Assembly: GCA_944371905.1 (NCBI GenBank)
Contig: CALVYA010000004.1
Coordinates: 9,078 to 73,077, forward strand
Direction: 5' to 3'
DNA: 64,000 bases
Origin: an uncultured Bacilli bacterium
GTDB lineage: Bacteria > Bacillota_I > Bacilli_A > RF39 > UBA660
Shown here: piece after piece, positions 5,914-19,035 of the stretch
Position numbering within the stretch: the stretch's first letter is position 1
How the letters are laid out: each line of letters starts with the position of its first letter
The notes under the pieces: generated by a model
What the model was told of the DNA's origin: nothing
Databases searched by the model: none
What the model saw: the letters and a program-made list of their open reading frames with translations, nothing else
Program-made: the position numbers and the translations under genes

Positions 5914-7182
5914 ATGAAAAAGAAAATTATCCTGATAGTAGTGTTAATCATCCTGATAATAGGTAGTGGAGTAGGTGGTTATTTATATTATGATTCTCAC
6001 CAAAAAGCACTTATGAAAGAGCAAGAATTAGAAGAACATGAAGAACAGTTGAAAAAGGAAAAAGAATTGCTCAACGATATTAAAAGTAATTATAATGAAT
6101 TTGTAAAAACTAACAAGGAAGCTAAATTATATAAATTAGTGGAAGAGAAATATCAAGAAATTGGAACACTTGCTAATAACACTAATTTATCTTTAGCGAT
6201 CGTAGAAGATATTACTATCAACCATCAATATTTTAAGTTAGCAAATCATGACTATTATGTATTTTATAGGGATATTGAACCAAGTGAAAAAATAAAAGAA
6301 GATTCTTATTATAAAAATTATATTCCTTTTGATTATCATATTATTACAAAAAAGCCTACAAATTTCTATATTGATGAACAATTAATTTATAGTATTAATG
6401 AATCTTTAGAATTATCTGTAATCATGGAAGATGAAAGTAATTATTATGTAAATTTTGATAATAGATTATTTGCCATCAAAAAAGAAAATGTAGAAAAGAA
6501 GAGTGATTATAATCAAGATAGTAAAGTAGCAAAAGAAATAGCAGTATTAAATTATCATTTTTTCTATGATCCGGATAATGGTGAGGTTTGTAATGAAATT
6601 ATTTGCTTAACTAAGCAAAATTTCGAGGAACAATTAAAATATTTAAAAGAAAATAATTTTTATACAGCAACGATGCACGATTTATCATTGTGGTTAGAAG
6701 GAAAAATAAGATTGCCTGAACATAGTGTAGTAATTACCATTGATGATGGAGCTATGGGAACAGATACTTATTTGATAGAATTGCTAGAAAAATATGATAT
6801 GCATGGAACATTATTTTTAGTTACTTCGTGGTGGTCCAAAGATAAATATGCATCTCCTAACTTAGAAATACAGTCTCATGGACATAATTTGCATGAGAGA
6901 AGTACTAATGGATTAGGCAAAGCAATGTTTATGACCAAAGAACAAATACTAGTTGATTTAAAAGAATCTATTGCTACTTTAAATGGAGAAAATACAGCAT
7001 TTTGTTATCCTTTTTATCATTCTAATGATACAGTAATGAATGCTGTCAAAGAAGCAGGATTTAAACTAGGATTTCTTGGCGGTAATGTAAAAATCACACA
7101 AGAAGATAATCCTTATCAATTAAATCGATATATTATATTTAGTTATACCACTATGAGTCAATTTAAGAGAATGGTAAATTAA
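5914..7182 (+). CDS. Membrane-anchored polysaccharide deacetylase (NodB/CE4 family)
   Basis: N-terminal TM helix; VLNYH, VVITIDDG, QSHGH, FCYPF motifs. Confidence 0.85.
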   Translation: MKKKIILIVVLIILIIGSGVGGYLYYDSHQKALMKEQELEEHEEQLKKEKELLNDIKSNYNEFVKTNKEAKLYKLVEEKYQEIGTLANNTNLSLAIVEDITINHQYFKLANHDYYVFYRDIEPSEKIKEDSYYKNYIPFDYHIITKKPTNFYIDEQLIYSINESLELSVIMEDESNYYVNFDNRLFAIKKENVEKKSDYNQDSKVAKEIAVLNYHFFYDPDNGEVCNEIICLTKQNFEEQLKYLKENNFYTATMHDLSLWLEGKIRLPEHSVVITIDDGAMGTDTYLIELLEKYDMHGTLFLVTSWWSKDKYASPNLEIQSHGHNLHERSTNGLGKAMFMTKEQILVDLKESIATLNGENTAFCYPFYHSNDTVMNAVKEAGFKLGFLGGNVKITQEDNPYQLNRYIIFSYTTMSQFKRMVN

Positions 7183-7195
7183 AACTTCATTAAAA

Positions 7196-8422
7196 TTAAT
7201 GAAGTTCTTGTTTTTTTATTTGATCTATTTTATCTTTTACTTGCTTTAGCATTCTTTCGTTAGGTGAATTGTCACTTGGAATATAGTATCTTTTATTTTT
7301 TAAATTATCAGGCAAATATTGTTGTACTACAAAATGATTAGGATAATCATGGGGATATTTATATGTAGAAGATGAGTTTTTGATATGCGTAGGAATATTA
7401 CCACATCGACCAGTTCTTACATCTTCTAAAGCTTTATCTAAAGCAAGATGACTAGTATTAGATTTAGGAGACAATGCTAGTTCTATTACGACTTCCGCTA
7501 GAGGAATTTTAGCTTCTGGTAGACCTACTAGTTGACTAGCCTGAATAGCAGCCATCACTTTGGGACCCATAGATGGATTGGCTAGTCCAATATCTTCATA
7601 ACATATAACACTCATTCGTCGAAAAATACTGTCTAAATCACCAACTTCAATTAATCTTGCTAAATAATGTAAGCTAGCATCTACATCACTTCCACGAATA
7701 GATTTTTGGAAAGCACTTAAAAGATCGTAATGACCATCTTCGTTTTTATCATAAAATAAAGAAGGTTTATTATTAATTTTAGTTAAATGTTCCATAGTTA
7801 TTTTTTTATCTGGGGAAGAATAATATGCTACTTCTAATAAATTATAAGCATATCTTAAATCAGTATTAGCGACTTTGGCTATATAATCTATACTTTCTTT
7901 ATCTATTTCAATCCCTTTTAAATATTCACTTTGAACTGCTTTATTTAATCCTTCCATAATATCGTCATCACTAAGAGGCAAAAGTTCAAACAATTGACAT
8001 CTACTTCTAATAGCAGGATTAATGGCATGATAAGGATTACTGGTAGTAAGACCTATTAAAGTAATTAAACCGCTTTCCAATTGAGGCAATAATAAGTCTT
8101 GTTTATCTTTGTTTAAACGATGAATTTCATCCATGATTAAAACCATACCATCAAATAATTTGGCTTCTTCTACTACAACATCAAAATCATGTTTATTATT
8201 AATGGTAGCATTTAAAAAACGATATTTTACTCCTAATTGTTTCACAATAGCATTAGCAATCGATGTTTTACCAATACCAGGACGTCCATATAAAATCATA
8301 GAGAATATTTTATTGTTGTTCACCAGATTCGTTAAAACTTTACCTGGACCTATTAAATGTTTTTGTCCAATTACTTCCTCTAGCGAATTAGGTGCTAATT
8401 TTAATGCTAATGGTTTATCCAT
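7196..8422 (-). CDS. rarA: Replication-associated recombination protein A (MgsA/RarA AAA+ ATPase)
   Basis: GRPGIGKT Walker A, MDEIHR, TTSNP, SAFQKSIRGSD, YPHDY. Confidence 0.95.
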   Translation of the reverse strand: MDKPLALKLAPNSLEEVIGQKHLIGPGKVLTNLVNNNKIFSMILYGRPGIGKTSIANAIVKQLGVKYRFLNATINNKHDFDVVVEEAKLFDGMVLIMDEIHRLNKDKQDLLLPQLESGLITLIGLTTSNPYHAINPAIRSRCQLFELLPLSDDDIMEGLNKAVQSEYLKGIEIDKESIDYIAKVANTDLRYAYNLLEVAYYSSPDKKITMEHLTKINNKPSLFYDKNEDGHYDLLSAFQKSIRGSDVDASLHYLARLIEVGDLDSIFRRMSVICYEDIGLANPSMGPKVMAAIQASQLVGLPEAKIPLAEVVIELALSPKSNTSHLALDKALEDVRTGRCGNIPTHIKNSSSTYKYPHDYPNHFVVQQYLPDNLKNKRYYIPSDNSPNERMLKQVKDKIDQIKKQELH

Positions 8423-8495
8423 AGTAATCCTCCCTTTCTATCTATTAATAGTTTATCATATACGAAAGTATGTTTGCAATATGATAATAATTTAG

Positions 8496-8524
8496 TTTAC
8501 TTTTAAAATTAGGGATGTTATACT
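8496..8524 (+). promoter_or_regulatory. Predicted sigma-A promoter of cas9
   Basis: TTTACT(8496)-N17-TATACT(8519) with extended TGn. Confidence 0.65.
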
Positions 8525-8539
8525 AATTCTAATTAAGGG

Positions 8540-8574
8540 CTAGTAAAGACTTAGTTGTTTTTACTAGTTTTTTT
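8540..8574 (+). terminator. Terminator-like hairpin inside the predicted cas9 5' leader
   Basis: CTAGTAAAGAC-ttagtt-GTTTTTACTAG (11 bp, one G-U) plus T7, before SD AAGGAGGT at 8582. Confidence 0.6.
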
Positions 8575-8597
8575 GTTATAAAAGGAGGTAAGAAGTT

Positions 8598-11500
8598 ATG
8601 ACAAATATGGCCCTAGGAATAGACATTGGAATATCTTCTGTAGGAGTAGGAATAATTAATCAAGATACTGGAGAAATTATCGATAGTGCAGTTAGAATTT
8701 TCCCTCAAAATCATAAAGAAGATAATACTATAAGACGTACCATGAGGGGTAGTAAGAGAACATTAAGAAGAAAAAAACATCGTTTAGAAAGAGTAAGAGA
8801 TGAATTAGAAAATATAGACTTTCCTTGCCCAGACTATAAAAAATATAGTCATACTAATCCTTATGAAATTAGAGTCAAAGGATTAAATCATAAACTGTCA
8901 AAAGAGGAGATCTACATAGCTATTATGCATATTACTAAAAGACGTGGAATTAGTTATCTAGAAGATTTTACAAATGATAATATTAAAGATCCAAAAGTAA
9001 CAAACAAAATAATAGAAGAAAACTTAGAACTATCTAAAAACAAATATATATGTGAGATTCAGTTAGAGCGTTTACAAAATAATGATAAGGTACGTGGAAT
9101 TGATAATGTTTTTGAGACTAGAAAATATATAGAAGAATTGCAAAAAATTCTAAAAACGCAAGCTATATATTATGAAGAAATAGATGATGAATTTATTAAT
9201 GTAATAACAAATATAGTGAAATCAAAACGTGAATATTTTGAAGGACCTGGAAGCATTAAATCGAAAACAGATTATGGAAGATTTAAAACGAATGGAGAAG
9301 TATTAGATAATCTATTTGAAATATTGATTGGTAAATGTAGTATCTTTAAAGAGGAATTACGTGCTCCTAGAGCCTCCTACGATGCACAATTATTTAATTT
9401 TTTAAATGATTTAAATAATTTGATTATTAATAATGAGAAACTGACAAAAGAGGATAAACTAGCTATATATCATCATGTGATGAATTCTAAATCAGTTAAT
9501 ATGATTAATTTTATATGTAAATTAAAAAATGTTACAAAAGAACAAATAGAAGGTTATCGCATTGATCCTAATGGCAAACCTTTATTTCATAAGTTTGAAA
9601 TATATAAAAACTTTATGAATCAATTAGAAAAACGAGGAATAGATTCTAGTATGATTGACATTACTTCTTATAATAAAATTAGTCGTTGTCTTACCTTAGA
9701 GACTTCTAAAGCAAGAAAAGAAAAAGTTTTAAAAGAAGAATTGCCTGAGTTAAAAATAGAGGTTATTAAGGCTATCATTGAATTGGATGACAGTCATTTT
9801 AGCAAATGGCATTCCTTATCTTATAAGGCTATGAATGAAATTATCGATGATTTATGGAATACTTCCTTAGAACAACATACTTTGTTTTTACAACATAATT
9901 TGATTAAAGAGAACTACGAAATATATCAAGGTAAAAAGAATATTCCTACGGATTTTATTGATATGGATATTATGAATCCTATAGCAAGAAGAAGCATTCG
10001 GCAGGCTATTAAAATGATTAATGCTTTAAGAAAAAAATATGGGGAATTTAGCCATATTATTATTGAAATGGCTAGAGAACTATCCACAGATCCTAAAGAA
10101 ATACAAAAAGAACAAAAAAGAAATATGAAAGAAAAAGAAGAAGCGGTAGCTTTAGTAAAAGAATATGGGTATACATTAAATTCAATCCCAAATGAATTAC
10201 TAACAATGTTACGTTTATGGAAAAGTCAGGATGGAAAATGTATTTATTCTCATAAAAGTATTTCTATAGATGATTTAATAAATAATCACTATATGTTTCA
10301 AATTGATCATATTATTCCTAAATCGATTTCTTTTGATGATAGTATGAAAAATAAAGTACTATGCTATAGTAGTGAAAATCAAAAGAAAGGAGTTAAAATT
10401 CCCTCTCGCTATTTTGCAAGTGGTATGGCTAGTATTAGTTATGAAGAATATAAAAATTATGTTTTAGATTTGTTTGAACGTAATTTAATTACTAACGCTA
10501 AAAAAGAGTTGTTATTATATGATAAAGATATTACAAAATATGAAGTAAGAAGAGGATTTATTAATCGTAATTTGCAAGATACAAGATATGCTACTAGAGT
10601 AGTATTAAACACTTTACAAAATTATATGAAAGCTAATAATATAAAAACTAGTATTTTTACAGTAAAAGGAGCCTATACCAGTAAAATTAGAAATAGATGG
10701 AATCTTTCTAAAGATCGAACTTATTATAAACATCATGCAGTTGATGCATTAATTGTTGCCGCTAGTAATAAAGCAAAATTATATTATGATGGTCCTTTTT
10801 ATAATTATATTAATTCTTTTTTGAATAACGAGAAAGAAGAGAACCTTCTTATCCATAATGTTATAGATGATACTACTTATGATGAGATTGTATATTCAGA
10901 GCCATATTCTCATTTTATTAAAAATTTGAAAGAATTAAATCCAAAAATATCTCACAAAGTAGATACTAAAATAAATAGAGTTATTTCTGATGCAACTATA
11001 AAATCTTCTAGAATTATAAATGGTCATGAATATAAAATAACAAAATCAAATAACATTTATGAACAGGATGGTGAAAAAATAAAAAAGAAAATTTTAGAAA
11101 ATCCAGAGCAATTACTAATGTATTATCATGATAGACAGACATTTGATTATTTAGAAGAAATAGTAAAACACTATGCTGATGCTAAAAATCCTTTTTTAGA
11201 ATACTATAAAGAGCATGGAGCTATAAGAAAATATTCTAAAAAAGGAAATGGTCCTGTTATTACTTCTGTTAAATATTTAAATGGTAAATTAGGAATTCAT
11301 TTATCTATTCGGCACAAATATAAAGATACCAAAAATAATGTTTTTTTATCAACCCTTAAACCTTATAGAATAGATGTATATCAAAATGATAAAGGAAAAT
11401 ATAAATTTATTACTATTACTAACTCGATGTTTTCCTTTCATGGTGATAAATTACAATTAGAAAAAAGTCAATTGGAATTAGAAAAAAATAAGAAGAAAAT

Positions 11501-11768
11501 AACAGATGATTATCAGTTTCAATTCTCTTTATATAAAGGAGACTGTTTTGAAATAATGATAAATGATCATAAATATACCTATTCATTTTTAGGTATTCAA
11601 AGTGATAAAACAAATAAAATAGAATGTACTTATGTGGAAAAACAAAGGAGGAAAGAAGAAAGAATTTTTCTTAGTATTGGACCAAGTGTAAAAGAATTTA
11701 GAAAGTACTATACCGATATTTTAGGTAATAAATATTATAGTAAGTCCTTGACAAAATGTAATAATTAA
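8598..11768 (+). CDS. cas9: Type II-A Cas9, compact (1056 aa), S. aureus / S. thermophilus CRISPR1-like
   Basis: RuvC-I GIDIG, bridge helix RRTMRGSKRTLRRKKHR, RuvC-II IEMARE, HNH QIDHIIP...NQKK, RuvC-III HHAVDA, C-terminal TDILGN; catalytic residues appear intact. Confidence 0.97.
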   Translation: MTNMALGIDIGISSVGVGIINQDTGEIIDSAVRIFPQNHKEDNTIRRTMRGSKRTLRRKKHRLERVRDELENIDFPCPDYKKYSHTNPYEIRVKGLNHKLSKEEIYIAIMHITKRRGISYLEDFTNDNIKDPKVTNKIIEENLELSKNKYICEIQLERLQNNDKVRGIDNVFETRKYIEELQKILKTQAIYYEEIDDEFINVITNIVKSKREYFEGPGSIKSKTDYGRFKTNGEVLDNLFEILIGKCSIFKEELRAPRASYDAQLFNFLNDLNNLIINNEKLTKEDKLAIYHHVMNSKSVNMINFICKLKNVTKEQIEGYRIDPNGKPLFHKFEIYKNFMNQLEKRGIDSSMIDITSYNKISRCLTLETSKARKEKVLKEELPELKIEVIKAIIELDDSHFSKWHSLSYKAMNEIIDDLWNTSLEQHTLFLQHNLIKENYEIYQGKKNIPTDFIDMDIMNPIARRSIRQAIKMINALRKKYGEFSHIIIEMARELSTDPKEIQKEQKRNMKEKEEAVALVKEYGYTLNSIPNELLTMLRLWKSQDGKCIYSHKSISIDDLINNHYMFQIDHIIPKSISFDDSMKNKVLCYSSENQKKGVKIPSRYFASGMASISYEEYKNYVLDLFERNLITNAKKELLLYDKDITKYEVRRGFINRNLQDTRYATRVVLNTLQNYMKANNIKTSIFTVKGAYTSKIRNRWNLSKDRTYYKHHAVDALIVAASNKAKLYYDGPFYNYINSFLNNEKEENLLIHNVIDDTTYDEIVYSEPYSHFIKNLKELNPKISHKVDTKINRVISDATIKSSRIINGHEYKITKSNNIYEQDGEKIKKKILENPEQLLMYYHDRQTFDYLEEIVKHYADAKNPFLEYYKEHGAIRKYSKKGNGPVITSVKYLNGKLGIHLSIRHKYKDTKNNVFLSTLKPYRIDVYQNDKGKYKFITITNSMFSFHGDKLQLEKSQLELEKNKKKITDDYQFQFSLYKGDCFEIMINDHKYTYSFLGIQSDKTNKIECTYVEKQRRKEERIFLSIGPSVKEFRKYYTDILGNKYYSKSLTKCNN

Positions 11769-11777
11769 TTATATACT
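11748..11777 (+). promoter_or_regulatory. tracrRNA promoter overlapping cas9 3' end
   Basis: TTGACA(11748)-N18-TATACT(11772). Confidence 0.75.
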
Positions 11778-11783
11778 GGTATT

Positions 11784-11876
11784 GTGAACGACGGTTCACC
11801 AAATACCGTAAGTTAACAGAGCTTACTAAAATAAGGGTTTATCCCGAAATCGAGATTCTTTGGAATCTCTTTTTTT
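11784..11876 (+). ncRNA. tracrRNA: tracrRNA
   Basis: Anti-repeat CAAATACCGTAAGTTAACAGAGCTTACTAAAAT pairs with repeat nt 1-31 with the typical bulge; nexus-like AAGGGTTTATCCCG; terminator GAGATTC-TTTG-GAATCTC-T7. Confidence 0.9.
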
Positions 11877-11881
11877 ATATT

Positions 11882-12784
11882 ATGTTTCGAATTATATATA
11901 TAAAAGAAAGCGAAAAATTATCTTTAAAGTTAGATAGTTTGTTAATTGATAACAATAATAATGAATATTCTATACCACTAGAAGATATAGATACGATCAT
12001 GTTGGAAAATAATAAATGTATATTAACTTCAAAATTGATTTGTAAATTAATGGAATATAAAATTAACTTTATAGTTTGTAATGACAAAATGATGCCTACA
12101 GGAATGATGTTACCATATCAACAACATAGTAGGGGAACTAAAGTTATTTTAAACCAAATAAGTTGGACAAAAGAAACTAAAGATTTTTTATGGGATATCA
12201 TAATAGAAAACAAAATAAGAAATCAAAGAAAAACACTAGAATTATTTAATAAGACCAAAAAAGTGATTGATAAATTAAAAGAATATGAAGAATTAGTAGA
12301 TAACGGAGATAGTAGTAATAAAGAAGGCCATGCTGCTAAAATATATTTTAATGAAATGTTTGGAAAAGATTTTATTAGATTTGATAATGATCCAGTTAAT
12401 AGTGCATTAAATTATGGATATACCATATTAAGAGCCAATATATGTAGAGTTGTAGTCGCATATGGATTAATTCCTAATCTTGGTATTAATCATAGAAATG
12501 AATTTAATAATTACAACCTTGCTGATGATATTATAGAAGTATATCGACCAATTGTAGATATGTGGGTATACAAAAATATGATACATAAAACCTTTTTATC
12601 TAGAGAAGATAGAATGAGTTTGATTAATCTATTAAATGGTACTATTGAAATTGGCAATACTACACAAACGTTAACCAATTCATTTCAAAAATATTTAAAT
12701 GGAATATTAGGCTTTATTGAAACTGGTGATCTAGGTAGGTTAGTCTTTCCTAAAATTGAAACTTTTAAAGAATATGAATTATAG
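11882..12784 (+). CDS. cas1: CRISPR integrase Cas1 (type II)
   Basis: EGHAAKIYF, NSALNYGYTIL, GINHRNEFNNYNLADDIIEVYRP. Confidence 0.96.
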   Translation: MFRIIYIKESEKLSLKLDSLLIDNNNNEYSIPLEDIDTIMLENNKCILTSKLICKLMEYKINFIVCNDKMMPTGMMLPYQQHSRGTKVILNQISWTKETKDFLWDIIIENKIRNQRKTLELFNKTKKVIDKLKEYEELVDNGDSSNKEGHAAKIYFNEMFGKDFIRFDNDPVNSALNYGYTILRANICRVVVAYGLIPNLGINHRNEFNNYNLADDIIEVYRPIVDMWVYKNMIHKTFLSREDRMSLINLLNGTIEIGNTTQTLTNSFQKYLNGILGFIETGDLGRLVFPKIETFKEYEL

Positions 12785-13100
12785 ATTTATGAGATTATTA
12801 GTTATGTTTGATTTACCTACTAATACAGCTTTAGATATTAGAAATTATAATAATTTTAGAAAATTTCTTATTAAAGAAGGATTTTATATGTTGCAGTATT
12901 CCATATATGTAAAAATATGTACTAATAAAGATTCTGCGGATTTAGAAGTAAATAAAATAATAAAAAACAAGCCTCCACAAGGAGCGATAAGGACTTTAAT
13001 ATTAACGGAAAAACAATACTCTGATATGAATATCATCATTGGTGGAAGTAAAAAAGAGGACGAAAAAATAGGTATTAGAAAATTAATAATTTTTGATTAG
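12774..13100 (+). CDS. cas2: Cas2
   Basis: MNYRFMRLLVMFDLPT, MLQYSIY, LTEKQY; overlaps cas1 stop. Confidence 0.96.
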   Translation: MNYRFMRLLVMFDLPTNTALDIRNYNNFRKFLIKEGFYMLQYSIYVKICTNKDSADLEVNKIIKNKPPQGAIRTLILTEKQYSDMNIIIGGSKKEDEKIGIRKLIIFD

Positions 13101-13102
13101 AG

Positions 13103-14167
13103 GTGATAATAATTATAATAGAAAAATTTAATCATATAAATAATTTTAAATTACCAACCAACAATATTAATTTTATAATAGGAAATGATTATAATTTTAA
13201 AAATGATATTATAAAAGCTTTGTCTATCTACTTTGGTAATGAAAAAGAAAGTACTGATTATATAGAATATAATAATACAAAATTACAAATTTTAAATAAA
13301 AATAATCTGATAAATCCAAAAGAATATAAGTTCTTAAAATTAGATATATTAAAATTAGATTTGAATAATGAAATAGAATTAAATAAACATTCTTTTTTTA
13401 GAGAAATTATGGATAATTATTTACAAAATAATTACATTAGTACTGATTTAGAAATGTTAGTAAACTCTATCATTGAAGATATATTTTGTGATAAAGAATA
13501 TGATTTTGCTAACGGCATTTCTTTAAAAGTTAATATTAATCCATTAACTAGTAAAATAATAATTGAACATTTATTAAACATTGAAGTTAAAAAGAATGAT
13601 CAAAATATTCCTATTGATTATCTAACATATTTTGATAAAGTCAATATATTGTTAGAAGAAATCGGGCATTTGATTGATATTTATTTAAAGGAAAATAAAG
13701 TAATTCTAGTACTTGATAATATAGATTATAAATTAACGATAGAGGAAATCAAAAAAATATACAAAAAAATCCAAATATTAAGTGAATATCCTGATTTATA
13801 CATTTATATATTTACAAATAATACAATTTTAATAGAAAATCAAAGTAATTTATTGAAATGTGTTCTTATTAATATTAACAATAGTATTGTCTATTTTGAA
13901 AATTATGACGATATTTTGTTGAAAATAAAAGAGAATTATCCGTTGGTAATAGAAGATAAACATTTAGATAAATTAACAACAAGCACAATAGTAAAAAATA
14001 TAAATAGTATTTGTAATTTATGCACATTAAGTGATAGTGAATTTAATAATTTAGAGGAAATGACAATAATAAAAATAATCAATGATATTTTTGATTTTAA
14101 ATATGATCTTAATTTTTTGTATGAATATTCAAATAATTGTTATTATTCTTATTTAACGAGCGACTAA
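13103..14167 (+). CDS. csn2: Csn2, long (S. thermophilus CRISPR1-type) form; start codon uncertain
   Basis: 354 aa ORF between cas2 and the array, size and position typical of the long Csn2; sequence highly diverged. Confidence 0.75.
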   Translation: MIIIIIEKFNHINNFKLPTNNINFIIGNDYNFKNDIIKALSIYFGNEKESTDYIEYNNTKLQILNKNNLINPKEYKFLKLDILKLDLNNEIELNKHSFFREIMDNYLQNNYISTDLEMLVNSIIEDIFCDKEYDFANGISLKVNINPLTSKIIIEHLLNIEVKKNDQNIPIDYLTYFDKVNILLEEIGHLIDIYLKENKVILVLDNIDYKLTIEEIKKIYKKIQILSEYPDLYIYIFTNNTILIENQSNLLKCVLININNSIVYFENYDDILLKIKENYPLVIEDKHLDKLTTSTIVKNINSICNLCTLSDSEFNNLEEMTIIKIINDIFDFKYDLNFLYEYSNNCYYSYLTSD

Positions 14168-14214
14168 TTTAAATGATTGTATTTTTTTTAAAATAATTAT
14201 ATAATTATTTTGAG
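14168..14214 (+). promoter_or_regulatory. Short CRISPR leader with promoter and leader-anchoring sequence
   Basis: TTGTAT(14177)-N17-TATAAT(14200); leader ends TTTTGAG, matching the ATTTGAG-type II-A leader end. Confidence 0.8.
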
Positions 14215-15233
14215 GTTTTAGTATTCTGTTAATTTAAGGTATTTGAAAACGTGAGATATTAAAGAGTATAGCAAGGCAAAGTTTTAGTATTCTGTTAATT
14301 TAAGGTATTTGAAAACTTGTTACTGCTTTAACAACTGGTATTACTGGTTTTAGTATTCTGTTAATTTAAGGTATTTGAAAACTTAAATATTTAACGACAC
14401 GACTTGGACTTTGTTTTAGTATTCTGTTAATTTAAGGTATTTGAAAACTTCGGAGCAAAAGTAGTTGCGGAAATAGTAAGTTTTAGTATTCTGTTAATTT
14501 AAGGTATTTGAAAACATCTTAATAATCATTATAGTTTTTATCCAAGTTTTAGTATTCTGTTAATTTAAGGTATTTGAAAACTAGATGGAGTAAAGTCTTT
14601 ATTTATTCCAGGTTTTAGTATTCTGTTAATTAAGGTATTTGAAAACAAAAGATGTTAATAGAATAACAACAACTTATGGTAAAGAAGAGTACGATGGCAG
14701 TTCATTAGAAGGATTACCAGGTTATATGGAACGTAACAGAGATAATATTGTGTATGATATAGATAAAGACATAAAAAAAAGAACCACTAACCCAAAGCTC
14801 CAATTGCATAACGTTAGTGGTTCATCTGGGAATAATATAACACAAACTGTTGAAAATGTCAATTTCCCTATTAATTACGATATGCAAAATCAACAAAATA
14901 ATACACAAGATTTTAAAGTTCCTATTCAAGAAGATATAAGACAAATGGAAATTTCTGATATCAAATTACCAACTAGAAAAACTTTAAATCCAACAGAAAT
15001 ATCTAGTTTAATTGAAGAAGATGAAAATACAACACCAATATTACCAAATGCTAAAGTTTCAACAGGAAAAGGAGAAAGTAATTTTGGTAATAATATTGAA
15101 AATAAAAATAATATGTTAAATGAAAATAGTAAAAGTACTATATTATCAGTTTGTTTTAGTATTCTGTTAATTTAAGGTATTTGAAAACGATTATTTAATA
15201 GTTTTCTATTACTGTTAGGTTTTAGTATTCTGT
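14215..15233 (+). CRISPR. Type II-A CRISPR array: 8 repeats plus truncated terminal repeat, 8 spacers, one of 506 bp
   Basis: Repeat GTTTTAGTATTCTGTTAATTTAAGGTATTTGAAAAC at 14215, 14281, 14347, 14413, 14480, 14546, 14612 (35 nt, one T missing), 15153; 15-nt partial at 15219; seven spacers of 30-31 nt. Confidence 0.98.
14647..15152 (+). other. 506-bp giant spacer or captured coding fragment within the array
   Basis: Flanked by repeats 7 and 8; one frame is stop-free across its whole length (ORF 14639-15175). Confidence 0.85.
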
Positions 15234-15326
15234 GACTTATATTTTCTTTAAAATATTGCATTAAATATTTTTGTAATATTTTTTTATTTTATAGATTGTG
15301 GTAAAATATAGGTGCAAGGTGATTAT

Positions 15327-16217
15327 ATGAATAACACGTATCAGGATGAATATCTATCGTATATAGAATTCGAACGTAGATTATCTAAAAATACAATTTT
15401 ATCCTATAAAAATGATTTAGAAAAATATATAGCTTTTTTAAAAAAAAGAAAAATCGGTTCAATAACTAATATTACCCAAAAAGATATATTAGAATATTTA
15501 GAATACTTATCTCAAGAAGGAATATCTACTACTTCAATTGCTAGAAAATTAACTACAATTAAGAATTTTCATAGTTTTTTATATCAAAGAGAATTTATTG
15601 AGCATGACGTAGCTTCTTCTATAGAGCGTCCTAAATTAAGAAAATCTTTACCTAAAGTTTTAACAGTAGAAGAAGTAGATAGATTACTAGATGTGCCATT
15701 AAATACGATATTTGACTATCGTGATAAAGCTATGTTAGAATTAATGTATGCAACAGGATTAAGAGTAAGTGAATTATTAAATTTAACTTTAAACGACATT
15801 GATTTTGAAAGTTGTATAGTAAGATGTATGGGAAAAGGGAAAAAAGAACGTATTATTCCTATTGGTGAATATGTTTTAGATTCCATGAGACAATATTTAG
15901 AAAAGCGACCTAAATTATATTTAATGAAACGTGATGAACATTTATTTTTAAATAATCATGGGAAAGGATTAAGTAGAAGTAGTTTTTTTAAAATGATAAA
16001 ACGAAGATTGCAATCATGTAATATTAATATTGATATATCACCTCATACGCTACGACACAGTTTTGCTACTCATATGATTGAATACGGTTCAGATTTGCGT
16101 GTTGTCCAGGAATTATTAGGGCATTCTGATATCAGCACAACTAGAATATATACCCATATTTCTAATCAAAAAGTACGAACTGATTATGAAAATTATCATC
16201 CAAGAAGTAAAAAGTAA
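15327..16217 (+). CDS. xerD: Site-specific tyrosine recombinase XerD
   Basis: YATGLRVSEL, GKGKKER, SPHTLRHSFATH, LLGHSDISTTRIYTH; adjacent to deoB as in Bacillus ripX-drm. Confidence 0.92.
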   Translation: MNNTYQDEYLSYIEFERRLSKNTILSYKNDLEKYIAFLKKRKIGSITNITQKDILEYLEYLSQEGISTTSIARKLTTIKNFHSFLYQREFIEHDVASSIERPKLRKSLPKVLTVEEVDRLLDVPLNTIFDYRDKAMLELMYATGLRVSELLNLTLNDIDFESCIVRCMGKGKKERIIPIGEYVLDSMRQYLEKRPKLYLMKRDEHLFLNNHGKGLSRSSFFKMIKRRLQSCNINIDISPHTLRHSFATHMIEYGSDLRVVQELLGHSDISTTRIYTHISNQKVRTDYENYHPRSKK

Positions 16218-16229
16218 GGAGATTTAAAT

Positions 16230-17399
16230 ATGAAATTTAAAAGAATATTTGTATTAATATTAGATTCTTTAGGAGTAGGGGAAGCACCTGATGCTAATAA
16301 CTATAATGATAGTGGAGCTAATACATTAAAACATATTATGGATAATTATGATTTATTTATACCAAATTTAAAAAAATTAGGATTTTTAAATACAATTAAT
16401 ATGGATGATAATCCTAATGTAGAAGCATATTATACTATTGCTCATCCTAGTAATATTGGTAAAGACAGTATTTCTGGGCATTATGAAATTATAGGGTTAG
16501 AAAATAAAATTCCATTTAAAACTTTTTCTGAAAAAGCTTTTCCTAGAGAATTAATAGATATTATAGAAGCTAATATAGGAAAAAGATTAATTGGTAATAA
16601 AGTAATTAGTGGCGAAAATATATTAGCAGAATTAGGAGATAGACATTTAAATTATGGGTCTTTAATTATTTTTACTTCAGGGGATTCGACGCTAGAAGTT
16701 GCGGCTCATGAAGATATAGTACCAATCTCTAAATTATATTCTTATTGTGAAAAGATTAGAAAGTTAACTGAGCGTGAAGAATGGAGAGTAGCTAGAGTTA
16801 TTGCAAGACCATTTACTGGAAAAAATGGTAAATTTAAATTTACTAATGACCGTAAGGATTATACTTTAAAGCCACAAAAGAAAAGCATTCTAAACAATCT
16901 AAAAGATAATGGATATAGTGTTATTTCTATTGGCAAATTAAATGATATAGTAGATGGAGAAGGAATTACTAAAATAATTAAAGCATCTGCTACTAATATT
17001 GATACCATTAATAAAATGACTGATATTATGGCTAAGCACTTTACAGGAGTATGCATTACTAATTTAAGTGAATTTGATAGTTTTTATGGACATCAACGAA
17101 ATGTAGAAGGATATGCTACAGCTATTGAAGAATTAGATGTAGAAATACCTTTGATATTAAATAAATTAAACAATGATGATTTACTAATTATTACTGCTGA
17201 CCATGGTAATGATCCAACATTTGAAGGAACTTATCATACGAGGGAAAATGTCCCAGTTATTATATTTGGAAGAAATTTTAAAAGTCCAAAAAAAATACCT
17301 ATATTAACTTCATTAGCTGATATAGGTGCTACTATTGCAGATAATTTTGATGTTCCTAAAACTGATATGGGAACAAGTTTCTTAGAACAATTAAAATAA
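16230..17399 (+). CDS. deoB: Phosphopentomutase
   Basis: ILDSLGVG, GKDSISGHYE, RVIARPF, ITADHGNDPT, HTRENVP. Confidence 0.95.
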   Translation: MKFKRIFVLILDSLGVGEAPDANNYNDSGANTLKHIMDNYDLFIPNLKKLGFLNTINMDDNPNVEAYYTIAHPSNIGKDSISGHYEIIGLENKIPFKTFSEKAFPRELIDIIEANIGKRLIGNKVISGENILAELGDRHLNYGSLIIFTSGDSTLEVAAHEDIVPISKLYSYCEKIRKLTEREEWRVARVIARPFTGKNGKFKFTNDRKDYTLKPQKKSILNNLKDNGYSVISIGKLNDIVDGEGITKIIKASATNIDTINKMTDIMAKHFTGVCITNLSEFDSFYGHQRNVEGYATAIEELDVEIPLILNKLNNDDLLIITADHGNDPTFEGTYHTRENVPVIIFGRNFKSPKKIPILTSLADIGATIADNFDVPKTDMGTSFLEQLK

Positions 17400-17402
17400 A
17401 AA

Positions 17403-17431
17403 GAGTAGGGAATTCACTCCCTATTCTTTTT
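17403..17431 (+). terminator. Intrinsic terminator after deoB
   Basis: GAGTAGGGA-attcac-TCCCTATTC-TTTTT. Confidence 0.75.
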
Positions 17432-17606
17432 ATTGTTCTTTCTTTTTAAAACTATCACATATAGTTTCATTTTTTTCATGTACTTTATCGGTCTTACATC
17501 CACTATTACATGATACCATAATTTCTTCTAAATTACATTCATTGCAATCACATTTGTTGTATTCACAGCTTTTAACATTACATTTAATTGTTTGATTATT
17601 TTTCAT
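17430..17606 (-). CDS. Small Cys-rich protein, DUF1540-like
   Basis: IKCNVKSCEYN...C..EEIMV...ETICDSF pattern; SD GGAGG before ATG 17606. Confidence 0.75.
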   Translation of the reverse strand: MKNNQTIKCNVKSCEYNKCDCNECNLEEIMVSCNSGCKTDKVHEKNETICDSFKKKEQ

Positions 17607-18267
17607 TTGATTACCTCCATTACTATTTTGCTCCAAAATTAGACTATTATTCCCCTATTCTTAATTAATAGGGAAGGAAGGAACACTAATGATGATTAAA
17701 ACAAAATTAAATAGTAAAAGATAGATAATTATTCATCTTAATTTATTTTAAATTATATTAATATGGGAAAACATTATTAAGATATATAATATAATGAAAT
17801 AATTAATATTATAATAATAAATTAAAATAGTTAATTTGAAAAAATAATATTTTATGTAATTATTATTTATAGTATAATAATTATAAAAGAAGAGTAATAC
17901 TCTTATAAATATATTTCATTATAATAAATAGTAAATATATTATCTATGATTTGTATTAGATATAAAAAAGAAGTCAACATAACATTAATTATCGGAAGTT
18001 GTTAAAAAGCAGATTTATCACTATCTTTTTATTCACTCTATTAAAATAACTCATATTATTATTAACCTTTTATATGATTTTGTTATGCCTTTTTTTTTAT
18101 CATTATTTATTATTATTATTATTTTTTTTATCAATACTTTATTTATATATGTAATAAATAAGTTCCTTTACTTATTGTAATAAATATAAATTAAGTTTTA
18201 AGTTTTTTCAATATAAAATTAAAAAGACAGTGTATATTTTACAGTGTCTTTACTATTAATAATGATC

Positions 18268-19035
18268 TTATACTTTTCTAGATTGAATTTCTGCTATTTT
18301 TTCTAATACTTCTTTTGCATTTTCTTCATTTATTTCCGTATATCCAAGTTCTCTTAAGGCTTGTACTTTTGCCGTATTTAATTCTTGAGTTCTACTTAAT
18401 TTTTCTTCGTTTTTATGTTCAATATCTTGAACAAATCTTTTATGTGATTCTGCTAATTTAACTTTTGAAGCACTACCATTATTATATAATGTTAAACCAG
18501 AGAATAAAATACTCTCGAAAATAAATTGTTGATCAGGATTAAATACAAATTCCATTGGATCCGTAAATCCCATTGATTTAGACATATAAGCTAAAATATA
18601 TTTAAGTTCTTTAGAAGTTTCCATAGATTGCAAATAATGATATAAATAAACATAAGCATTATAAGTATCTTTTGTAGTATCTTCTTGTAACTTTTCTTTT
18701 AATAAATTAATAATATCCGTTAGTAACTCTTGTTCTTTTTTATTAAATCCTTTTAAATCTGCTAATACTTCACGATCAGAGGAATCCTTAACCCCTTCAT
18801 TTAATCTACCTTCAACATCGATAATATAATTACCATCTACATTTAAGGAATCAAGCTCTTTTTCATCCTTTATATTTAATAAACTCATAAGCTTAGTTGC
18901 TTTTTCTTTTGGCCATTCACTTAATGAATTTAAAGCTAAATAATTATATAACATTTGTCTTGAAACACCCAAATATTTAGCTAGTCTAACCTTAGAAACC
19001 CCCAACTCATTTAGCAAGTTATTTAAATTCTCCAT
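18268..19035 (-). CDS. Helix-turn-helix DNA-binding protein
   Basis: N-terminal LGVSKVRLAKYLGVSRQMLYNY HTH; strong SD GGAGGG. Confidence 0.75.
   Translation of the reverse strand: MENLNNLLNELGVSKVRLAKYLGVSRQMLYNYLALNSLSEWPKEKATKLMSLLNIKDEKELDSLNVDGNYIIDVEGRLNEGVKDSSDREVLADLKGFNKKEQELLTDIINLLKEKLQEDTTKDTYNAYVYLYHYLQSMETSKELKYILAYMSKSMGFTDPMEFVFNPDQQFIFESILFSGLTLYNNGSASKVKLAESHKRFVQDIEHKNEEKLSRTQELNTAKVQALRELGYTEINEENAKEVLEKIAEIQSRKV

Follow-up and report, generated by a model that had tools for sequence, protein, structure and literature searches.

The window, as we call the whole 64-kb stretch of DNA analysed here, carries a complete type II-A CRISPR locus, with cas9, a putative tracrRNA, cas1, cas2, csn2 and an array (Table 1). 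This agrees with the original prediction, made from the letters and open reading frames, which had called the array type II-A: cas9, cas1 and cas2 were recognised by NCBIfam models, and csn2, which gave no hit in Pfam, NCBIfam and PDB sequence searches, by a PADLOC HMM alone. The 354-aa csn2 product is thus a divergent long-form Csn2. The putative tracrRNA sits between cas9 and cas1; its anti-repeat is predicted to form a duplex of -32 kcal/mol with the repeat, the best such site outside the array, and is followed by GAGATTCTTTGGAATCTC and a T7 run. An Rfam search of positions 7000-16500, the putative tracrRNA included, returned no match.

The Cas9 of the window is 64% identical to that of a rabbit-gut MAG with the same repeat. 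This MAG, labelled 'uncultured Bacilli bacterium', is the only GTDB genome that shares the window repeat, and it has two arrays around its cas operon, each with its own leader (L004 1546-1977; L004 7863 to L005 293). Further along the window, at ~17000-18500, the sign of the GC skew flips and genes pass from the + to the - strand, a pattern of convergent replication which suggests a terminus region next to xerD and the CRISPR locus.

Table 1. Coordinates of the locus, its array and the insert in the window, and of related features in other contigs.
Feature	Position	Strand	Basis or remark
cas9, 1056 aa	8598..11768	+	NCBIfam TIGR01865, E 8.5e-192, full length
Putative tracrRNA: anti-repeat (~11793-11833), hairpin, T-run terminator	11792..11876	+	RNA duplex with repeat
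cas1 (type II)	11882..12784	+	TIGR03639, E 1e-91
cas2	12756..13100	+	TIGR01573, E 3e-22; gene callers start ~50 nt later, 98 aa
csn2, long form, 354 aa	13103..14167	+	PADLOC Csn2 model PDLC01379, E 3.2e-21, whole model
Leader end (...AATTATATAATTATTTTGAG)	14168..14214	+	Same motif before first repeat of L004, L005, L021, L051-L055
Repeats R1-R6 and spacers S1-S6 (30-31 nt)	14215..14611	+	
Repeat R7, 35 nt, one T gone from TTT run (AATTTAAGG to AATTAAGG)	14612..14646	+	
506-bp insert, in-frame piece from the interior of a phage MuF_C polyvalent-protein gene; frame start 14648	14647..15152	+	HMMER
Putative former spacer X, first 29 nt of insert	14647..14675	+	ATGGTA directly after
PAM-like ATGGTA inside insert	14676..14681	+	Fits NNGG(NA)
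Putative former spacer Y and present guide segment, last 30 nt of insert	15123..15152	+	Abuts perfect R8
Repeat R8, perfect	15153..15188	+	
Spacer S8, oldest, 30 nt	15189..15218	+	Identical in every contig reaching S8
Degenerate terminal repeat (GTTTTAGTATTCTGTGACTTATATTTTC...)	15219..15254	+	
xerD-type tyrosine recombinase, chromosomal neighbour outside the element	15327..16217	+	TIGR02225, E 1.8e-106
Protospacers in IMG/VR phages giving the PAM	L036 17891; L043 17708; L045 17641; L024 13040-13068		
L020/L021 insert, 1784 bp, between penultimate and terminal repeats	L021 5042-6825		
L059-L061 fragment, 595 bp, decayed	L060 95-689 (unit L060 60-790)		
L062/L063 fragment, ~1060 nt, directly after last repeat	L063 458-1600		

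The array spans positions 14215-15254 and is built on a 36-nt repeat, GTTTTAGTATTCTGTTAATTTAAGGTATTTGAAAAC, which is perfect in seven copies (starts at 14215, 14281, 14347, 14413, 14480, 14546 and 15153). Seven spacers measure 30-31 nt, and the R7-R8 interval measures 506 bp (14647-15152), far outside the spacer ruler given by the ~100 spacers of related arrays, which are 29-31 nt long. This insert lies flush with R7 (35 nt) and R8 (36 nt), with a repeat on both sides. It is the second-to-last unit of the array and also the second-oldest, as the leader faces csn2 and the degenerate repeat faces xerD. One of its six frames has no stops over 168 codons (mechanical ORF 14639-15175, 178 aa), a fully open state found in only 1 of 20,000 shuffles of the insert, and its GC content by codon position (0.37/0.31/0.12) is typical of coding DNA; overall GC (26.7%) equals that of the 64-kb window. 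No repeat remnants were found within it, the best ungapped match to the repeat being 20/36, and neither half of the repeat matched at two or fewer mismatches. A second copy of the insert was absent from the window. The repeat coordinates and the shuffles thus bear out the original prediction on spacer lengths, flanking repeats, the single stop-free frame of about 168 codons and the lack of internal repeat remnants. The 1-nt deletion in R7 had escaped it.

The insert in same-species contigs and its phage relatives

Contigs of the same species were retrieved from many metagenomes by exact-protein look-ups with the ORF and the neighbouring XerD. The block made up of R7 (with its 1-nt deletion), insert, R8, S8 and terminal repeat was 100% identical in L002, L003, L006, L008, L009, L011 and L013, and the R7 deletion was present in every other contig covering R7. 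Two further contigs hold parts of the block: L001 carries S6, R7 and the insert for ~280 nt, and L014 the 3' junction. The BRZ_* and ONAT22-1_* contig pairs are probably the same reads assembled twice, which leaves about five or six independent samples. At the leader end the arrays vary: S1 is strain-specific and is replaced by two other spacers in L006 and L001, L008 and L009 have neither S1 nor its two replacements, and L013 lost S5. Because the insert and its junctions are identical in seven contigs with differing leader-end spacers, the insert is real and fixed and arrived before the current turnover of spacers, and the same variation means that the array stayed active after its arrival. 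The comparison with related strains, which the original prediction had proposed, supports its view of an old event, retained near the trailer.

Some contigs depart from this picture at their edges. In L002 (1-2246) and L003 (1-2037), a secreted-protein gene of 52% GC is joined to the last 15 nt of S6; this left side is an assembly chimera, and the two contigs are probably one read set assembled twice. In L001, the copy of S3 (215-235) differs from the window at three positions (GCAG vs GGAC), and after ~280 nt of the insert the contig runs into 31 nt absent elsewhere (749-779), features that may reflect either poor coverage at the end of the contig or true variation.

The insert is foreign DNA, shown by colinear protein homology to be a piece of a phage gene for a MuF_C "polyvalent" virion protein, as the idea of a captured foreign gene fragment had anticipated. 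An exhaustive HMMER search with the insert peptide returned 58 relatives, nearly all of them matching inside proteins of 1500-2900 aa. The peptide is colinear from end to end with residues 505-650 of P0005 and matches P0003 at residues 599-721 (E 3e-20; colinear over 599-712), with 39-47% identity to the two proteins. MuF_C, LPD23 and SprT-like domains occur in the relatives, and the polyvalent-protein genes are located in phage structural modules, with portal and capsid genes on one side and tail, holin and lysin genes on the other. A motif profile retrieved 28 IMG/VR phage contigs, and the nucleotide identity of the insert to phage loci is ~70-76%; the closest phage is that of P0003, and its contigs were assembled from the sample series that also yielded the host.

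With MuF_C polyvalent proteins (Pfam PF18819; LPD23 and ART-PolyVal in relatives) the insert shares an aligned MuF_C end, linker and conserved motif, NPxEISKLTxxDANTTP...GESxF...NKxxML, and it differs from them in comprising 168 residues, cut mid-motif, with neither start codon nor promoter of its own. It covers only these 168 of 1500-2900 residues, with no full-length ORF, and gave no Pfam domain above threshold. Its end falls within the conserved motif ...NKxxMLxExSKxxILS|xxDVxYY, which marks it as a fragment rather than a functional gene. The ORF had been considered as a functional gene, a reading that was rejected, the analogous fragments in L021, L060 and L063 (described below) holding frameshifts and stops. 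Comparison of the insert DNA and peptide with phage and plasmid collections, the check originally advised, gave no match, nor did the single insert peptide against IMG/VR or against GTDB genomes; two word-indexed protein searches returned no relative above 63% identity besides the insert's own array copies. A near-identical source, the true source phage, is absent from all collections searched.

Fragments in related arrays and the phasing of their ends

Three extra cases were found through short ORFs among the homologues of the window peptide, so that their shared gene of origin reflects ascertainment and is not evidence of a hotspot. The largest, in L020 and L021 (a Hadza gut sample and one other), lies in a different type II-A array at a locus with cas9, cas1, cas2 and csn2, whose repeat, GTTACAGGACCCTGTTAATTTTTAGTAATGTATAAC, is identical to the window repeat at 23/36 positions. 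It is colinear with polyvalent proteins and decayed, with frameshifts and stops. In this locus csn2 is on the opposite strand, and downstream of the array L020 has an inovirus-like block (7700-12354; Zot and a replication-initiator family), where L021 has mutS, tig and greA. The second case, in L059-L061, shares the layout of the window: the repeat before it has lost one base and measures 35 nt, and after it come a repeat, a 30-nt spacer and a degenerate repeat. A single-base deletion in the upstream repeat is thus seen in both. The third, in L062 and L063, has no recognisable downstream repeat; it has in-frame TGA at conserved Trp positions and was read with genetic code 4, which its host or phage thus uses. 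L060 and L063 have repeats 1 nt apart, in different genomic contexts and with different fragments.

Each of the four fragments forms either the last or the second-to-last unit of its array, at the trailer end. They are independent events, since their boundaries and upstream domain architecture differ; common descent was rejected on these differences, and Cas1 of the window and of L021 are only 41% identical. Oversized spacers were absent from seven other array stretches of the window repeat family. In JGI metagenomes the exact window repeat was not found, and a degenerate repeat search there gave six arrays, none with an oversized spacer.

The PAM was approached with 91 spacers from all collected arrays, scanned against 31 phage loci at a threshold of L-6 or better. 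This gave 19 hits, compared with 2 for shuffled spacers. Three spacers account for 13 of them: L052_s5 (30/30 in L036 and L043), L051_s22 (28/29 in L045 and 25-26/29 in seven further loci) and sp17 of the rabbit MAG (24-25/29); the other six, matching at 23-24 positions, were set aside as noise. In the 3' flank of each of the 13, positions 3-4 are GG, and the usual form is NNGGNA. We thus read the PAM of this small-Cas9 family as NNGG, mostly NNGGNA, from three spacers of related Cas9s (64% identity or more distant) and not from the window's own spacers, and phages with the polyvalent gene are natural targets of this CRISPR family. For the window itself, the concatenated spacers found no protospacer in phages and plasmids, and two 24-mers of its spacers found none in IMG/VR. 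Ungapped scans at 22/30 or better stayed at background level (38 hits vs 31 in shuffles), the signal emerging only at L-6 or better.

Read against this motif, the 5' ends of the fragments appear to be phased as those of ordinary spacers are, starting 29-30 nt upstream of NNGG in three of four cases. In the window the first 29 nt of the insert are followed by ATGGTA, and ATGG is kept in 7/7 alignable phage homologues; the chance of NNGG at an offset of 29-31 is ~0.07, from its frequency of 0.024 in the insert. In L063 the first 30 nt are followed by GTGGGT. In L021 they are followed by AAGATA, which is AAGGTT in 8/14 phage homologues, one G-to-A change away. At the 3' end, 26/27 homologues of the L021 insert continue with NTGGAT, and 25/25 homologues of the window insert read NNGA, not NNGG, the source phage itself not having been found. 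The L060 fragment shows no phasing at its 5' end, and at its 3' end it misses the GG of homologues by one nt. With NNGG at 1.5-3.4% of positions in the fragment sequences, chance is ~0.07-0.10 per end, and the ~4 phasing hits in 7 tests are unlikely to have arisen by chance (roughly 1e-3). The statistics are modest, with two of the hits read from homologues of ~75% identity.

Routes by which phage DNA could enter an array

We hypothesise that phage DNA recombined with two pre-existing spacers, rather than entering by one oversized integration, and we consider this account about equally likely to be right or wrong. The ancestral array would have held two ordinary spacers from the phage gene in the same orientation, X on the leader side and Y on the trailer side. 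Infecting phage DNA would have recombined with the array at X and Y, either by a double crossover or by integration at X followed by deletion at Y, and the array segment between them, with at least one repeat, would have been replaced by the phage sequence between both protospacers. The outcome would read repeat-[X...phage DNA...Y]-repeat, each junction being flush with its repeat. This unit would be transcribed in the pre-crRNA, and only its last ~20 nt, beside the intact R8, would mature through tracrRNA and RNase III, the other ~480 nt being inert passenger sequence; X would no longer yield a crRNA, as no repeat follows it. We infer the former separate spacers, the recombination and the processing of the unit alike. 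The earlier suggestion that the 3' end of the insert could serve as a guide is plausible, given the intact repeat beside it and the lack of any terminator-like site in 14100-15350.

The 5' phasing, together with NTGG at the 3' end of the L021 insert, favours recombination through two spacers over the capture of an untrimmed prespacer. The L062/L063 fragment also speaks for it, because full-site integration would not leave a fragment without a downstream repeat. Against it, recombination with 30-nt arms is inefficient, and the trailer position of all four fragments is left unexplained. Separate X and Y spacers were seen in no array, every recovered strain holding the fused form, and none of 97 collected spacers matched any of the inserts. 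Varble and colleagues reportedly demonstrated in 2019, by experiment in staphylococci, recombination between phage and CRISPR through spacer and protospacer, and Nussenzweig and colleagues are said, in the same year, to have found that Cas9 cleavage biases new acquisitions to nearby sites, which would make two neighbouring colinear spacers plausible. As in that recombination, a spacer here would act as a short homology arm and the hybrid junction would fall exactly at a spacer. The laboratory work on recombination reportedly followed the CRISPR locus moving into the phage and its transduction, whereas here phage DNA became fixed in a chromosomal array, apparently via two spacers, in natural populations.

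Two other routes were tried and rejected. A single crossover with an internal deletion needs identical first and last 30 nt of the insert, and these differ; two Cas9 cuts would free a piece starting 3 nt ahead of a PAM, which the ends do not fit. The fetched parts of phage loci L016-L018 contain no CRISPR-like repeat at nine or fewer mismatches and so give no sign of a solitary repeat borne by the phage.

A possible but rather doubtful alternative is the one first proposed, in which a single full-site reaction by Cas1-Cas2, together with Csn2 and Cas9, would have inserted an over-length prespacer at the repeat that was then leader-proximal and duplicated that repeat. Of that proposal, the capture of a phage gene piece and the flush repeats stand; the one-step mechanism is not established, as the insert starts 29 nt upstream of ATGGTA. 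Such an event would need no pre-existing spacers, and it fits the intact adaptation module (cas1, cas2, csn2), junctions that in three of four cases are flush with a complete repeat on either side, the continued activity of the array and the PAM-adjacent 3' end of the L021 insert, as expected for any prespacer selected by Cas9. The insert resembles canonical type II-A acquisition by Cas1-Cas2-Csn2, with Cas9 selecting the PAM, in being phage-derived DNA flush between full repeats, with its 3' end abutting a repeat and a leader end that keeps gaining spacers. Simple capture, however, predicts an arbitrary 5' end, and three of four are phased 29-30 nt from NNGG. The type II-A Cas1-Cas2 measures prespacers tightly, and all related arrays keep to spacers of 29-31 nt. 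Unlike canonical acquisition, the insert has 506 bp in place of 30±1 and an internal protospacer plus PAM at its 5' end, and the four analogous cases range over 0.5-1.8 kb, one of them (L062/L063) without a downstream repeat. In a variant, two adaptation complexes at two PAMs would make only the outer cuts; this would also yield the 5' phasing, with the same ends as recombination, but two inner cuts must fail together. If an integrase was at work, the event would resemble casposon integration, in which a Cas1 enzyme inserts long DNA and duplicates its target, here the repeat, but the insert has neither terminal inverted repeats nor a casposase, and the enzyme would be an adaptation-type Cas1-Cas2.

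We think it improbable that the fragments are instead scars of phage-borne CRISPR-cas transfer, in which a phage would have recombined with one spacer, packaged the cas genes together with the array as far as that spacer, and carried this DNA into a new genome or into a resident array; the fragment would then mark where the imported array stops. In favour of this account are the location of every one of the four fragments at the trailer end, the one-sided junction of L063 and the near-identical repeats of L060 and L063 in different contexts with different fragments. But repeats follow the fragment in the window, L021 and L060, which would call for a resident array beforehand; no direct evidence of transfer was obtained, and age, or selection against long mid-array inserts, would also account for the fragments being found at the trailer end. 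Two-spacer recombination may also be linked to phage-mediated transfer of CRISPR loci, given the one-sided junction in L063 and the trailer-end positions.

An artefact or ordinary insertion is hardly credible, for although metagenome chimeras near arrays occur, as the left sides of L002 and L003 illustrate, and arrays interrupted by IS or other mobile DNA likewise have an inter-repeat interval far above spacer length, the chimeric assembly, IS/MITE match and duplicated locus named in the original prediction as its possible undoing were not borne out: insert and junctions recur identically in seven other contigs with different array variants; the insert occurs once in the window and lacks terminal inverted repeats, a transposase, any target-site duplication besides the repeats and any match in plasmid and phage collections, its only open frame being an in-frame internal fragment of a phage structural-module gene; a duplicated host gene is countered by its only protein matches above 63% identity being its own array copies; and a degenerated array is ruled out by its coding signature and its phage homology, repeat remnants being absent as well.

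CRISPR spacers are treated as strictly length-limited. Here a natural population has a 506-bp phage fragment stable in a spacer position, and three related arrays hold pieces of 0.6-1.8 kb. We tentatively propose, while thinking it unlikely to hold in full, that oversized spacers are a recurrent natural product in this type II-A clade, recording either spacer-guided recombination that copies kb-scale phage DNA into arrays, possibly tied to phage-mediated movement of CRISPR loci, or casposase-like insertion of 0.5-1.8 kb by adaptation integrases in vivo. Either process, if true, would mean that long stretches of foreign DNA can enter arrays at defined sites. Should the end phasing stand, it would be evidence from genomes that spacers serve in nature as homology arms for exchange with phage DNA, which bears on the trade of DNA between CRISPR loci and phages; if an integrase is responsible, Cas1-Cas2 can insert long DNA site-specifically in vivo. 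To our knowledge, homology exchange between spacers and phages has so far been shown only in the laboratory, and we know of no documented kb-scale spacer-guided recombination or long integrase insertion in wild genomes; a literature search on giant, oversized or unusually long spacers and on spacer-mediated recombination found nothing relevant. In practice, array finders with spacer-length caps will split or miss arrays like that of the window.

Remnants of the polyvalent gene also occur outside arrays. In L019 (5765-10300), from a relative, they include an internal 300-nt duplication and no CRISPR repeat, and they lie between SpoIIM, mnmA, a 255-aa gene and DUF1540, in synteny with 17.4-20.9 kb of the window. 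Among these remnants is P0060, which of all homologues comes closest to the window insert, with 63% identity over the motif.
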